DNA of 64,000 nt from a virus: the IMG/VR virus record IMGVR_UViG_3300045988_142085, positions 1 to 64,000 of that record. One strand, written 5' to 3'. Below, one piece after another: positions 41,816 to 45,511 of this stretch. How positions within the stretch are numbered: the first letter of the stretch is position 1; each line of letters begins with the position of its first letter. A program made the translations under genes and the position numbers. The notes under the pieces were generated by a model, which had not been told where the DNA came from, searched no databases, and worked only from the letters and a program-made list of their open reading frames with translations.

Positions 41816-44209
41816 TTATTTCTTTTCAAGCATAGAGCGAATTTCATTTAATTCTTCTTGCATACGAATATTATTATTTTCTAATTGACGGATTTGTTCT
41901 TCAAGTTCGTGACGAGTTACTTGTTTTTGACCGCCAGTTTTAAAGCTTACACCTAAATTGTATGCTACTTCACCGTCTAATGTAACACCACCATGAATCA
42001 TAGTGTTTTCATTAGGTTGGTATGCAGCGCCTACGGCAACCGCATTAGCATTACGATAATGTCCTACACTAGCTGCGAAGGACCATTTGTCTTTAGGATT
42101 ATAGTCTAAGAATTTAAGGCCCGCTAGTGCTGACGCTTTAGCTACACCTTTATTAACCTGCAAATCTGTATAATGATTAGCACGTTCTAACGCATTGCGG
42201 CCAACAGAATCAATTTTATTATCTAAAACTTTAATATCAGATGTGTTTTTAGCGATATCTTTAGTATTTTTATCAATAAGTTTAGAATTATCGCTAATAG
42301 CACCTTTGATATCTTTATTTTCACTTTCTAAAGTAGTAATGCGACCTTCATGATCACCTACTGTATGTTCAATAGCTCGAATGTCTGCAGTATTAGTAGC
42401 TACATTTTTTTTAACGCCATTAAGAGCATTATTAACTTTATTTAATTGAGATACATTAACAGCATCAGTATCTTTTGTACCAGCTGTAATGTCATGAATT
42501 TGTTGATTGCCTACAGTGATATTATTTGTAGTAAACTCAACACGTTTACCGTTGCTATCTGCAGTCATACCGTTCATAGTATAGCTTGCAGTATCTAAAG
42601 TATCTGTGTTCTCTAAACTAATACCACTAGCATCTACTTTAGCGTTTGTGCTTGTATTATCATTAAAGAAATGAGCTTTTTCTTTATTTACAACACTTCT
42701 AACTGGTTCTGCAGTTGCTCCAAAGTTAGCAGAGTTCATATTGTACAAATCTTTATTGACATTAACGGAGAATTCTTTACCACCGTCGATGTTTGTAGTT
42801 TCAGCAACAGTAGTATTTTTACCATCAGCAACAGTAGTGAAGTTTAAGCTATTGATAACAGCGTTTAACTGACTACCATTAACAGCATCTGTAGAATTAC
42901 CATCAATTCTACCTGCTGCTACATTTGTAATGGTACGTTTGTAGTCTACTACACCGCCTGCTCCGGCTTTATTTGTTGTACCAACAGAAATAGTGCTATC
43001 AGCTGTACCACCTGCAAATTCATATCGTTTACCATTAATATGAATATGATCTGTAGAAACAGCTTCTTCGGTAGTAGAATTAGTGCCTAATGCTACAGAG
43101 TTTTGCACATCGGCTACTGTATTATTACCTAATGCAATAGCATCTTGTGCAGCTGCTTTACCATGAGTACCTACAACAATAGCACCTTGTTTTTCAGTTT
43201 GAGAATTAGAACCAAAAATCAATTGTTCAGGGTCAGTGCCTACAGCTTTATTGTTGTAACCAACAATAGCACTTTGACTAGCATCAACTGTACCATTATT
43301 AGCACCTATTACTGTAGTATCATCACCATTTACAGTCGTATCACGACCAACAACGATAGAAGATACACCTTTAGCATTTACATTCGTACCGATATTTACA
43401 GTTTTAATACCATCTGCATGGATACCGTTGCCAATAGCTACGGAAGATTCGCCATTAGATTTTACCCCGTTACCAATAGCAATAGTGTCTTGAACCTTAG
43501 TTTCAACACCATTACCGATACCAATAGTATTAAAGTCAGTAGCAACTCCATTGCCGATACCAATGCTATTACCAAGGTTATTGACAACGTTATTTCCAAT
43601 ACCAACACTATTATCACTATTAGTAGTAACTGCAGTACCAATACCAACACTATCATTACTATTGGTAGTAACTACAGTACCGATAGCTACATTGTTTTTA
43701 GAATGAGCCTGCGTATATGAACCAAGAGCAAAAGAATCTTTACCCTCTGCTACAGTACCAGCACCAACAGCAAGTGCATTAGCACCATTAGCATATGCTC
43801 CATTGCCGATAGCTACAGTATTATCTGCAGCAGTACGAGCTTGAGAACCAATAGCGAACGTATTGTCTTTTAATGCTTGTGCACTAGAACCAATTGCAAC
43901 AGAGTTACGGCCAGTCGCTTTTGCGTATTCACCGCCAACTAAGCTATTAATGCCTTCTGCTATATTTTCAACACCATAAACTAATGCATTGTTAGCATTT
44001 ACAGTATTTTTATAACCAACTACAAATGAAGATCTACCATCTTCATTAATTGTGTTAGTATAACCATAAGCTTCAGCACCATAATGAGCGGCTGTAGAGT
44101 TTACAGTATTATCTAGACCTGCTGCCATAGCTGTGCTACCAACAATAGATGCCATAATTAAACCAGTTAGTAATGCTTTGTTTTGTAATTTCATAGTAAA
44201 AATCTCCAT
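41816..44209 (-). CDS. YadA-like trimeric autotransporter adhesin (type Vc): signal peptide, head repeats, neck, coiled-coil stalk, C-terminal beta-barrel anchor
   Basis: Signal peptide MKLQNKALLTGLIMASIVGSTAMAAG; many NSVAIG/NTVAIGN/SVGIGN head repeats; neck DAVNVSQLN; C-terminal anchor ...VGAAYQPNENTMIHGGVTLDGEVAYNLGVSFKTGG. Confidence 0.8.
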   Translation of the reverse strand: MEIFTMKLQNKALLTGLIMASIVGSTAMAAGLDNTVNSTAAHYGAEAYGYTNTINEDGRSSFVVGYKNTVNANNALVYGVENIAEGINSLVGGEYAKATGRNSVAIGSSAQALKDNTFAIGSQARTAADNTVAIGNGAYANGANALAVGAGTVAEGKDSFALGSYTQAHSKNNVAIGTVVTTNSNDSVGIGTAVTTNSDNSVGIGNNVVNNLGNSIGIGNGVATDFNTIGIGNGVETKVQDTIAIGNGVKSNGESSVAIGNGIHADGIKTVNIGTNVNAKGVSSIVVGRDTTVNGDDTTVIGANNGTVDASQSAIVGYNNKAVGTDPEQLIFGSNSQTEKQGAIVVGTHGKAAAQDAIALGNNTVADVQNSVALGTNSTTEEAVSTDHIHINGKRYEFAGGTADSTISVGTTNKAGAGGVVDYKRTITNVAAGRIDGNSTDAVNGSQLNAVINSLNFTTVADGKNTTVAETTNIDGGKEFSVNVNKDLYNMNSANFGATAEPVRSVVNKEKAHFFNDNTSTNAKVDASGISLENTDTLDTASYTMNGMTADSNGKRVEFTTNNITVGNQQIHDITAGTKDTDAVNVSQLNKVNNALNGVKKNVATNTADIRAIEHTVGDHEGRITTLESENKDIKGAISDNSKLIDKNTKDIAKNTSDIKVLDNKIDSVGRNALERANHYTDLQVNKGVAKASALAGLKFLDYNPKDKWSFAASVGHYRNANAVAVGAAYQPNENTMIHGGVTLDGEVAYNLGVSFKTGGQKQVTRHELEEQIRQLENNNIRMQEELNEIRSMLEKK

Positions 44210-44224
44210 TATTTAAAAAAACAA

Positions 44225-45511
44225 TTATTTATTTTGATTTTTTAAAGCTTCGTTTTCTTGAATTAATGTATTAACGATAGCTTTTAAATCATCAATATCT
44301 TTTGCCATAGAAGCTGGGCTACGATATTCAATATCTTTAGCACCTACTTTATAGCTTACACCAGCATTAATTGCTGTATCTTTACCGTTAATGGATGCAC
44401 CTACAGTAAACATAATATTTGCATTTGGACGATAGGATACACCTAATGCTACAGCAGTATTGCCACGATAATGGCCAACACCAGCCATAGCATCTACTTT
44501 ATGATCTGGATTATAATCTAATGGATGTAATGCTGCCAAAGCAGATACGGATGCAATACCTTTGCGAGCTTCTTTTTGATTAGCATTAATTCTATTATCT
44601 AAAACACTTAAATTGTTTCTAATTTCAGTAACATTGTTATTACTTACGTTAGCTAATTCTTTAATAGCGTTAGTATTTATTTTAATGCCATTAGTATTAT
44701 TTTCTATTTCAGATACAACAGCATGTAATTGACTACCATTAACTGCATCTGTAGATGTGTCAGATACACGACCTGCTGCTACATTTGTAATGGTTTTTTC
44801 TTTATTTACATCACCAATAGACACAGTGCCTACAGGAGTAGTTCCAGCAACTGTATGAGCTTTATTATTAATCATAATAGAAGCTGTATTTACAATGGTA
44901 TCAGTTTTTGCATCGCTACCAAAAGCTACTGAATTGTCTATAGTAGCTTCTGCACCATTACCGATTGCTACTGAATTTTCAGCGATAGCTTTAGCTTTTT
45001 TACCGATAGCATATACATTATCGCTTTCTACTTCTGCATCTTCGCCAAATACAAAAGAATTTTTACCGGTAAGTTTTGCTCTTTCACCGCCGGCAAAAGA
45101 ATTTTCACTTCGGAAATCAATAGCATTGTTATGACCAAATACTAATGTACCACTAGAATGTGTTGCATTTTCATTGCCGCCAGAAATACTATTGTTCGCA
45201 TTAGTAATTGTATTGTGGTCACCAGCTACTATAGAATTTGCAGAATTGTTATTGTTACCTGTACCAAATGTTGCACTATTATGTGCATCGTGTTGGACCA
45301 TATTATTATAGCCACCAACTAAAATATTTCTTACGACGTTCCCGTCATTATGTTGGGTAACGTTGATATCTTCACCATACAAAATGGAATTGTTTGCTTC
45401 AGTAGTTGTGCTATAATGACCAACATTAAAATGTTGATTATTTTCTGCCGCCATAGTTGTACTTGCCAAAGACGCCAATACTAAACCTGTTAATAAAATT
45501 TTGTTATTCAT
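44225..45511 (-). CDS. second, shorter YadA-like trimeric autotransporter adhesin
   Basis: Signal peptide MNNKILLTGLVLASLASTTMAAEN; head repeats; DAVNGSQLHAV; anchor ALGVSYRPNANIMFTVGASINGKDTAINAGVSYKVG. Confidence 0.8.
   Translation of the reverse strand: MNNKILLTGLVLASLASTTMAAENNQHFNVGHYSTTTEANNSILYGEDINVTQHNDGNVVRNILVGGYNNMVQHDAHNSATFGTGNNNNSANSIVAGDHNTITNANNSISGGNENATHSSGTLVFGHNNAIDFRSENSFAGGERAKLTGKNSFVFGEDAEVESDNVYAIGKKAKAIAENSVAIGNGAEATIDNSVAFGSDAKTDTIVNTASIMINNKAHTVAGTTPVGTVSIGDVNKEKTITNVAAGRVSDTSTDAVNGSQLHAVVSEIENNTNGIKINTNAIKELANVSNNNVTEIRNNLSVLDNRINANQKEARKGIASVSALAALHPLDYNPDHKVDAMAGVGHYRGNTAVALGVSYRPNANIMFTVGASINGKDTAINAGVSYKVGAKDIEYRSPASMAKDIDDLKAIVNTLIQENEALKNQNK

Follow-up and report, generated by a model that had tools for sequence, protein, structure and literature searches.

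Tandem trimeric autotransporter adhesins in a variable gene slot of a large tailed phage of the human oral microbiome

We analysed a 64,000-nucleotide (nt) stretch of viral DNA, positions 1 to 64,000 of IMG/VR record IMGVR_UViG_3300045988_142085 (hereafter the window), which carries two tandem minus-strand genes for trimeric autotransporter adhesins (TAAs), a shorter one, TAA-S, and a longer one, TAA-L. Judged by their sequences, both proteins are complete type Vc TAAs, with every defining feature that can be examined in a sequence in place, and the carrier is a ~236-kb tailed phage of the human oral microbiome to which the genes are native. The reading that we favour, and hold with moderate confidence, is that both are functional, export-competent TAAs of the Negativicutes type, encoded in a phage adhesin slot and displayed on the infected cell, whose adhesion or aggregation they would alter.

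Results

Both genes encode complete adhesins with a periplasmic tail

The two proteins have the following parts.

44225-45511, minus strand: TAA-S, a 428-amino-acid (aa) TAA
45449-45511, minus strand: TAA-S predicted signal peptide
44837-45448, minus strand: TAA-S head
44519-44836, minus strand: TAA-S neck and stalk
44345-44518, minus strand: TAA-S anchor
44228-44344, minus strand: TAA-S predicted periplasmic coiled-coil tail
44225-44227, minus strand: TAA-S stop codon
41816-44194, minus strand: TAA-L, a 792-aa TAA; reading frame open to 44209 (797 aa)
44123-44194, minus strand: TAA-L predicted signal peptide
42950-44122, minus strand: TAA-L head
42440-42949, minus strand: TAA-L neck 1 and middle region
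42110-42439, minus strand: TAA-L neck 2 and stalk
41939-42109, minus strand: TAA-L anchor
41819-41938, minus strand: TAA-L predicted periplasmic coiled-coil tail
41816-41818, minus strand: TAA-L stop codon

The original prediction, made from the letters of the window, was of a pair of tandem YadA-like adhesins, and two tandem minus-strand open reading frames (ORFs) do lie at its coordinates, 44225-45511 and 41816-44209. The 5' end of the second ORF is corrected here to the ATG at 44194 (M6 of the ORF), which has GGAG 9 nt upstream and is the first residue of an exact 792-aa database match (P0301). The predicted YadA-type head, stalk and anchor were recovered in both proteins above the Pfam gathering cut-offs, with E-values of 1e-9 to 1e-16: YadA_head (PF05658) scored 58.2 and 34.1 bits against a cut-off of 25, YadA_stalk (PF05662) 57.6 and 46.8 bits against 28.4, and YadA_anchor (PF03895) 38.7 and 57.6 bits against 22.7. 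The expected DAVNxSQL neck is also there, as DAVNGSQL in TAA-S and as DAVNGSQL and DAVNVSQL in TAA-L. Signal peptides were called by a crude heuristic (an n-region with lysine, a hydrophobic core and a cleavage motif), which agreed with the proposed Sec signals in finding n-, h- and c-regions at both N-termini; by this measure each has lysine in the n-region, a core with a Kyte-Doolittle value of 2.4-2.5 and the cleavage motif TMA/A, giving MNNKILLTGLVLASLASTTMA/AENN and MKLQNKALLTGLIMASIVGSTAMA/AGLD, where the slash marks predicted cleavage.

Beyond the last β-strand both proteins continue into a heptad-repeat tail of ~40 aa that had gone unremarked in the original prediction. The tail is 40 aa long in TAA-L, where the a/d heptad positions read L-I-L-N-M-L-I-L, and 39 aa in TAA-S, where they read I-L-V-L-N-L. 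Post-barrel periplasmic domains, which consist of a short coiled coil (<100 aa) or of a coiled coil followed by SLH or OmpA, are near-universal in the TAAs of Negativicutes and Fusobacteriia and rare in those of Proteobacteria (PMC7549365; 10.64898/2026.01.22.700529), and in Veillonella parvula deletion of the tail leads to degradation of the adhesin, so tails are required for TAA stability (10.64898/2026.01.22.700529). By architecture, both window proteins appear to belong to this subclass, the genes themselves being carried by a tailed phage rather than by a member of either class.

Structural comparisons gave the same layout. Sequence searches of the PDB matched fragments of UspA1, YadA, Hia, BpaC, SadA and CbpF. 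The best solved structure spanning anchor and tail was that of Fusobacterium nucleatum CbpF (9GH4, E 6e-11), whose alignment with TAA-L extends through the tail. We modelled TAA-S with AlphaFold as a monomer only; TAAs are obligate trimers, and we used no more of the model than its secondary-structure layout and an anchor-level Foldseek search. The modelled order is a signal helix (residues 3-18), a β-repeat head, stalk helices, exactly four β-strands (residues 339-387) and a terminal helix (399-425). The only significant Foldseek matches of TAA-S were the anchors of Hia (3emo, 2gr7, 2gr8) and YadA (2lme), with TM-scores to the target of 0.56-0.73. Neither protein reached any of the curated NCBIfam cut-offs for named adhesins (YadA, EmaA, Ata, BimA, Vomp): the best scores were 84 bits against 750 for YadA, 66 against 3000 for EmaA and 55 against 2500 for Ata. 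By these sequence scores, both are generic TAAs and neither is an orthologue of a characterised adhesin.

The genes belong to a large tailed phage

The window is a one-strand block of replication and nucleotide-metabolism genes. It encodes a DNA polymerase III (PolIII) alpha fragment, a primase, Gam, several helicases, a UvsX-like protein, a Pnkp-RNA ligase, a split NrdD, NrdG, thymidylate kinase, HNH endonucleases and one TnpB, with two group I introns and two tRNAs, as well as a 1054-aa protein that combines a phage tail-lysozyme domain with an M23 peptidase. The TAA genes lie inside this replication module and have HU, RNA ligase, helicases and primase as neighbours. The same gene arrangement (HU, 293 aa, 428-aa TAA, 792-aa TAA, on to DUF4406 and RNA ligase) is present on a 236,270-bp metagenomic contig (ERZ27263288 k119_70580), the source of the exact TAA-L match, and this contig has a Mu-type portal gene ~8 kb past the window edge and ~48 kb from the TAAs. 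The claim that a phage encodes the adhesins thus stands on the tail lysozyme within the window, the portal on the 236-kb contig and the arrangement that the two share. Beyond the window start, the same contig (L036:10498-20216) has ORFs of 517 aa (with an intein) and 526 aa, two LAGLIDADG ORFs and the portal itself (691 aa); the structural module therefore starts ~8 kb outside the window.

Homologues of the adhesins occur in IMG/VR and, labelled 'MAG TPA: Caudoviricetes sp.', in nr. In 51 of the 120 best TAA-S clusters the longest contig is at least 200 kb, and all 51 fall at 206-256 kb except one of 504 kb; no contig among the 120 is of megabase scale. The exception, a homologue (P0033) on a contig of 504,247 bp, is about twice the size of a ~252-kb class described below and is probably a concatemer assembly, not a larger phage. 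The GC content at third codon positions (GC3) of the TAA genes, 0.16-0.17, lies inside the range of their phage neighbours (0.12-0.27), and their higher bulk GC arises from codon positions 1 and 2, the proteins being rich in Gly and Ala.

A megablast search of the locus against ~50,000 deposited phage genomes gave no match, and a tblastn search of the same genomes with TAA-S returned four records. Two are Salmonella whole-genome shotgun contigs, not phage counterparts. The other two are labelled 'Acinetobacter phage MD-2021a'; the one that we inspected (CAKLQH020000029.1) is an Acinetobacter chromosomal contig mislabelled as phage, in which a giant Ata-like TAA is followed by an ompA/TpgA-like gene. 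Thus, at tblastn sensitivity, there is no true counterpart among deposited phages.

A fixed slot holds variable adhesin cargo

To avoid ascertainment bias from the TAAs themselves, we retrieved siblings of the phage through its backbone RNA ligase, which yielded 13 IMG/VR loci at 84-93% identity. All 13 have a TAA between HU or an orf294-like gene and orf113, two of them being broken off at a contig end. The cargo is mostly a single TAA of 756, 822, 903-906 or 942 aa, with at least four head types. Most of these TAAs end in an SLH tail (Pfam SLH, E ~1e-11), and in one of the 13 the C-terminus is of the TAA-L coiled-coil type; TAA-S is in none of the 13. The sibling locus L021 illustrates the exchange. 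Both of its flanks have 84-92% nucleotide identity to the window, four small ORFs stand in place of TAA-S, and its TAA joins a TAA-L-like head (74% nt and 56% aa identity) to a different anchor and an SLH tail. The closest relative of TAA-S (94% aa identity) lies on a 226,979-bp contig with the gene order of the window, and a 229,846-bp oral contig has both TAA genes in reversed order.

Divergence of cassette and backbone did not match when the window was compared with locus L015, from a distant relative. Synonymous substitutions per synonymous site (dS) in the backbone were 0.75 for HU, 1.24 for RNA ligase, 1.36 for UvrD and 2.0 for the SNF2 helicase, which is near synonymous saturation, with protein identities of 55-83%. 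The corresponding dS for TAA-S was 0.27 at 94% aa identity, and the stalk, anchor and tail of TAA-L had proportions of synonymous differences (pS) of 0.16-0.28 with protein identities of 95-100% (anchor 100%, tail 97%). This mismatch indicates that the cassette has a history decoupled from that of the backbone, pointing to recombinational exchange. By these comparisons, the locus is a fixed slot and a recombination hot spot with variable adhesin cargo, and the cargo is swapped among phages and probably with Veillonella chromosomes too; adhesive specificity is therefore re-assorted independently of the backbone.

The ratio of non-synonymous to synonymous substitution (dN/dS) differed along the proteins. 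In TAA-L it was 0 for the anchor and 0.03 for the tail, and in the head, which is 37-60% identical to that of L015, it rose to as much as 0.74. Between TAA-S and its 94% identical relative P0004 it was 0.13 overall and 0.10 in the head. These ratios place the translocator under strong purifying selection. A signal-peptide-like N-terminus is present in 229 of 240 homologues, the other 11 having visibly mis-called starts or borderline hydrophobic regions, and in all 153 of the 240 in which the last-strand motif was detected the tail is at least 39 aa long.

The host is probably Veillonella

In a scan of one genome for each of 185,579 species, which was seeded on peptide patterns and hence not exhaustive, the relatives of TAA-S were confined to V. 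rogosae, V. infantium and Veillonella sp. Over its final 133 residues, which take in stalk end, anchor and tail, TAA-S shares 67-75% identity with these chromosomal TAAs, which end in the same type of tail (…SLAKDVEDLKQIVAKLQAELEEARKK) and begin with signal peptides near-identical to those of the phage, such as MNKKLLLMAGVLSIIGSTTMA. Further named neighbours are SLH-bearing TAAs of Acidaminococcaceae. SLH tails, reported only from TAAs of Negativicutes (10.64898/2026.01.22.700529; PMC7549365), are the majority state in the close siblings of the window; a large protein search started from the SLH tail itself gave only three proteins. The anaerobic ribonucleotide reductase genes of the window fit an anaerobic host. 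In an exhaustive search of representatives, only matches covering the post-barrel tail were used to assess origin, and the top matches (giant TAAs of Klebsiella, Serratia, Bartonella and Xanthomonas) were discarded, their scores having been inflated by repeated necks.

From this evidence the host is probably Veillonella. Another genus of Negativicutes is unlikely, and so, to the same degree, is a member of the Fusobacteriota: a Fusobacterium host was judged less likely given that the identity to CbpF is about one third, against 67-75% for Veillonella, and that most siblings have SLH tails. The diderm host named in the original prediction is thus upheld, and anchor and tail identity together with SLH tails narrow it to Negativicutes.

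Composition also bears on exchange between phage and host. The Veillonella short TAAs nearest to TAA-S (L003:8807-11098, L004:5811-6941 and L005:9743-10624) have a GC3 of 0.11-0.15, which is the phage norm, whereas their neighbours in all three loci, including an adjacent giant native TAA, have a GC3 of 0.32-0.35. This suggests that Veillonella chromosomes acquired TAAs of this type from these phages, or that one low-GC donor supplied both. Over the anchor, the phage loci compared reach no more than 74-79% nucleotide identity to the low-GC3 Veillonella TAAs, and the direction of transfer is therefore read from composition alone.

The adhesin genes probably share a transcription unit with HU

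The signals and genes around the adhesins are as follows.

46803-46831, minus strand: candidate sigma-70-like promoter TTGACA-17-TATATT upstream of HU; the best coding-strand match (11/12)
46484-46762, minus strand: gene for an HU-type DNA-binding protein (Pfam Bac_DNA_binding, E 6e-28)
45544-46428, minus strand: orf294, between HU and TAA-S
41786-41807, minus strand: intrinsic terminator AGCCTCCC-TTAATT-GGGAGGCT with a T-run, 9 nt past the TAA-L stop

An HU gene lies upstream of the TAAs in L001, L015, L019, L021 and L022-L034. Homologues of orf294, which had no Pfam match, occupy the same position in siblings at 44-81% identity, and L015 and L001 have an 81-aa ORF in its place. At the equivalent position 5' of HU, L015, L016 and L001 have TTGACT-17-TATATT despite diverged flanks. 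The terminator stem is 8 bp long with six GC pairs, in surroundings of ~25% GC, and L015, L016 and L001 have an identical hairpin after their last TAA, in L001 despite a swapped gene order; L002, of the ~252-kb class, has a different GC-rich hairpin and T-run at the equivalent place. HU, orf294, TAA-S and TAA-L are therefore likely to form one transcription unit within the replication module, for which the site upstream of HU is a suggestive candidate start.

Two ORFs follow past the terminator, a small one that resembles a lipoprotein gene and one for a multi-pass membrane protein (39960-40319 and 40329-40775, both minus strand). The former, with the lipobox ...LLISVGC/GQD (slash before the residues that follow the cysteine), is found in only some siblings, at 77-96% identity, and may act in exclusion or assist the TAAs.

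Related adhesins occur in other classes of jumbo-phage contigs

Three further contig classes carry complete TAAs with Veillonella-type anchors. Contigs of a ~252-kb class have three tandem TAAs (901, 520 and 431 aa) flanked by radical-SAM genes, and in about 40 of the best TAA-S clusters the longest contig measures 251-256 kb. A ~238-kb class, marked by a PolB exonuclease-domain gene, has one SLH-tailed TAA of 1198-1304 aa after ThyA and DHFR; in one member (L017) a tail-tube gene is nearby, and one protein cluster has 350 member sequences. A ~285-kb IMG/VR contig has three tandem ORFs (661, 573 and 842 aa) across its TAA matches. The regions of ~20 kb around the TAAs of these three classes share nothing with the window except the TAAs.

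In another contig of the ~238-kb PolB type, a 712-aa gene of GH66, the dextranase family, directly follows the SLH-tailed TAA (L020:13754-15892). An adhesin beside an enzyme that degrades glucans hints at a module aimed at the biofilm.

Other features of the window

The window has two group I introns above the Rfam gathering threshold (34773-35094 and 62457-62662, both minus strand), one in or beside the SNF2-helicase region, the other close to a UvsX/RecA-like region, and numerous HNH ORFs, such as 17025-17762 and 54802-55986. The NrdD large subunit (11200-13462, minus strand) is split between ORFs at 12308-13462 and 11200-12081 with a gap of ~226 nt, in which Rfam called no intron, and there are two NrdG-like activase genes (6180-6692 and 57599-58204). 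A TnpB gene (OrfB_IS605 with a Cas12f-like TNB domain; 28313-29575, minus strand) lies just downstream of a 490-aa PolIII alpha fragment (30789-32261, minus strand), and PolIII alpha appears to be encoded in pieces. A 777-aa polynucleotide kinase-phosphatase-RNA ligase fusion of the tRNA-repair type (36781-39114, minus strand) and phage tRNA-Ser(UGA) and tRNA-Met (17884-18249, minus strand) together point to a counter-measure against host anticodon nucleases. In two relatives a 62-64-aa ORF matching Pfam 'Sequestin' (PF21825) lies between the SNF2 helicase and Gam (L001:14588-14782 and L015:17180-17368).

Discussion

A possible route from phage gene to altered adhesion

The sequence of events that we propose would begin with transcription of the TAAs together with the phage HU gene, from the sigma-70-like promoter to the conserved terminator, as the conservation of these signals suggests. 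The proteins would then be exported through Sec by their Veillonella-like signal peptides, and the host β-barrel assembly machinery (BAM) would insert the four-strand anchors as a 12-strand trimeric outer-membrane barrel, leaving the ~40-aa coiled-coil tail in the periplasm, where it would stabilise the protein as in the TAAs of V. parvula. Head, neck and stalk would thereby be exposed on the surface of the infected cell. Domain anatomy, conservation, patterns of selection and the known biology of TAAs all argue for export by Sec, insertion by BAM and surface display.

What display would achieve is a further hypothesis, and we regard altered adhesion or aggregation as its most likely role. The infected cell's binding partners, be they kin cells, partner species or a substrate, would change, and during a long jumbo-phage cycle the cell would be kept in the biofilm beside fresh hosts, which would favour transmission. 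Veillonella TAAs mediate autoaggregation, coaggregation, surface binding and biofilm formation (PMC7549365), and TAA autoaggregation is reported to act through the heads (PMC7568254). These roles, head-driven autoaggregation, the pairing with a dextranase-family gene in one lineage and the tongue and plaque biofilm habitat point this way. The idea that the tails, whether SLH or coiled coil, compete with OmpM tethering to aid lysis was set aside, as it leaves the elaborate, selected passengers unexplained.

Several observations weigh against the picture of Veillonella-type adhesins displayed to change adhesion. The signal peptides were assigned by heuristic only, and the AlphaFold model of TAA-S, a monomer of an obligate trimer, is of low confidence (predicted local distance difference test score 53). 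Sigma-70-like matches in the region number 60 against 54.5 expected, no excess over chance, and the promoter is therefore argued from a single site whose position is conserved. For this uncultured phage the host is assigned by inference; the phage's GC content is 32%, ~6 points below the 38% of the Veillonella loci, its backbone RNA ligase has its nearest matches in Fusobacterium phages (36-38%), followed by Bacillus and Staphylococcus phages at ~35%, and the best PDB match for the tail is CbpF, from Fusobacterium. Finally, as the function under selection, adhesion or aggregation and surface shielding fit the sequence data alike.

Alternative explanations

Shielding is the most serious of the alternatives, although we think it rather unlikely. 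A dense layer of TAAs, or displacement of host TAAs that serve as receptors, would block competing phages or the phage's own progeny, and the export-competent design and the site in the replication module behind a host-type promoter fit such superinfection exclusion equally well. With signal peptide, anchor and tail that are near-copies of those of host TAAs, the phage proteins would contend with them for a shared biogenesis pathway, and rapid turnover of heads is expected of an arms race between phages. Known exclusion factors, however, are small membrane proteins or lipoproteins, and we are aware of no TAA among them; one to three different and elaborate heads are not obviously needed for a shield, and purifying selection over the whole TAA-S passenger, including its head, suggests a specific, conserved ligand. 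Less probable again is that the genes are moron-like cargo, comparable to prophage eib, lom and bor, that serves the bacterium in a carrier or pseudolysogenic state or serves the gene itself by making the phage a vehicle that brings new adhesin cassettes into Veillonella chromosomes. In favour of this, the cassette ends in a conserved terminator of its own and its movement is not tied to that of the backbone, the GC3 outliers in Veillonella indicate adhesin gene flow between phage and host, and EibD, Lom and Bor of temperate phages are documented precedents (PMC8065619). Against cargo of this kind, no integrase or lysogeny module was seen within the 64-kb window, the peptide-seeded species scan found no prophage-like copy, and a slot filled in every sibling together with purifying selection on the translocator implies benefit to the phage, as opposed to neutral hitch-hiking.

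Two further readings would remove the adhesins from the infected cell's surface or from the phage altogether. In the first, the TAA-like proteins would be reused as tail fibres or whiskers, as in cyanophages and other phages, and YadA-type head and stalk modules are found in virion proteins confirmed by mass spectrometry (PMC9146016); the matching PHROG families include two labelled 'tail protein' and 'adhesin', and heads turn over like receptor-binding proteins. Even so, we find it improbable that TAA-S and TAA-L are virion components. Tailed virions assemble in the cytoplasm, from which a cleavable Sec signal peptide would withdraw both proteins; that peptide, the anchor and the periplasmic tail are conserved, with purifying selection acting on them; most siblings carry SLH, described as peptidoglycan-binding (PMC7549365; 10.64898/2026.01.22.700529); and the genes are in the replication module, far (~48 kb) from the portal. 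Still less credence is due to an artefact, whether bacterial DNA mis-assembled into the contig, a concern raised with the original prediction, or contigs that are in truth plasmids or chromosomal fragments. Its appeal is that the nearest named cellular homologues are chromosomal Veillonella TAAs and that one homologue is labelled 'Clostridiales bacterium' in nr. The arrangement, however, recurs in many independent assemblies and collections, all 13 siblings have a TAA, the contigs cluster at 206-256 kb with none of megabase scale, the portal gene and tail lysozyme are on the same molecule, and the flanking promoter and terminator are conserved. With recurrence in independent assemblies and GC3 within the phage range, mis-assembly is excluded for practical purposes. 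Display on the infected cell with an effect on adhesion or aggregation remains the reading that we prefer.

Novelty and implications

What is new is the joint occurrence of several features: carriage by jumbo phages (no lysogeny genes were seen in the window), a slot that is fixed in the lineage yet recombines, and Negativicutes-type TAAs with coiled-coil or SLH tails, together with recurrence in several classes of jumbo-phage contigs and compositional evidence of exchange with the host adhesin cluster. Outer-membrane cargo of temperate phages was already known, and EibD (as a TAA), Lom and Bor are the nearest functional precedents (PMC8065619). Our literature search found no paper tying autotransporters to jumbo or huge phages, the text of a global TAA survey never mentions phages (10.64898/2026.01.22.700529), and autotransporters are not mentioned in a survey of oral jumbo phages. 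The present finding extends the TAA survey, and it provides sequence-based host assignment for several abundant, uncultured groups of oral jumbo phages.

Neighbourhoods in oral biofilms are set by adhesins, and the TAAs of Veillonella, a bridging coloniser, drive both aggregation and coaggregation. Should it be routine for large, apparently non-temperate phages to impose adhesins on their hosts, such phages would shape biofilm architecture directly, beyond killing, with a class of auxiliary genes that targets host behaviour, not metabolism. The phage-like codon composition of some Veillonella TAAs further suggests a flow of cassettes from phage to host. A wider proposal, of which we are doubtful as a whole, is that abundant oral jumbo phages of Veillonella or other Negativicutes use a dedicated, horizontally re-assorted slot of one to three complete TAAs to reprogram the adhesion of infected cells, attaching them to kin or to partner species in the biofilm of tongue and plaque, for the phages' own transmission, and also shuttle new cassettes into Veillonella chromosomal clusters. 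If true, viruses would steer the social and spatial behaviour of bacteria, and the oral microbiome would hold a reserve of diverse adhesins in its phages. Strain SKV38 of V. parvula is amenable to genetics and comes with adhesin-null backgrounds and assays of aggregation, coaggregation and adhesion.

Comparison with known systems

The closest likeness is to the TAAs of Veillonella itself (VtaA-I of V. parvula and the short TAAs of L003-L005), which have the same end-to-end architecture as TAA-S and TAA-L and share with the phage proteins the short Sec signal-peptide pattern MNKK-LL--GVLS----MA. Like the phage TAAs, they undergo domain swaps and duplications in tandem clusters (PMC7549365), and the sibling phages carry SLH, the other tail type of Veillonella. 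Unlike the chromosomal cluster, the window TAAs are on a ~236-kb phage and their heads are ~40% identical or less; moreover, by GC3 the phage TAAs are native where they are found, whereas the most similar Veillonella copies look foreign in the chromosome. CbpF (PDB 9GH4/9GH5) is, like the window TAAs, a short protein with a β-roll head, a YadA anchor and an extension past the barrel (PMC12012533), and it has a CEACAM1-binding loop. It differs in being chromosomal and in having, by eye from the alignment, only about one-third identity in anchor and tail, against the 67-75% of Veillonella TAAs.

Eib, Lom and Bor are products of lysogenic-conversion genes on ~40-60-kb temperate lambdoid prophages of Enterobacteria, and the Eib proteins, as we understand it, stop at the barrel and lack a periplasmic tail. 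They are of proteobacterial type, whereas the window TAAs are of Negativicutes type and occupy a lineage-fixed slot on a ~236-kb phage; the match to EibD (2xqh) was marginal and confined to the head (E 9e-4), and on these grounds the window proteins are not TAAs of the Eib prophage type. What EibA, C, D, E, F and G, lambda Lom and Bor have in common with them is that all are phage-borne, non-structural outer-membrane cargo, and the Eib proteins are true, immunoglobulin-binding TAAs that confer aggregation and chain-like adhesion (PMC8065619, PMC12511318, PMC13534694).

The last comparison is with structural proteins of phages that contain YadA domains, none of which, to our knowledge, has a signal peptide or a membrane anchor. 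Such proteins, from cyanophages, phiEco32 and other phages, have YadA-type head and stalk modules like those of the window TAAs and are virion components detected by mass spectrometry (PMC9146016). TAA-S and TAA-L, unlike them, combine a predicted signal peptide with an anchor and a periplasmic tail. The conservation of these three parts among ~240 homologues, the purifying selection on them and the position of the genes in the replication module set the two proteins apart from tail fibres and other virion proteins, and by this inference bear out the original view that they are adhesins of the outer membrane.

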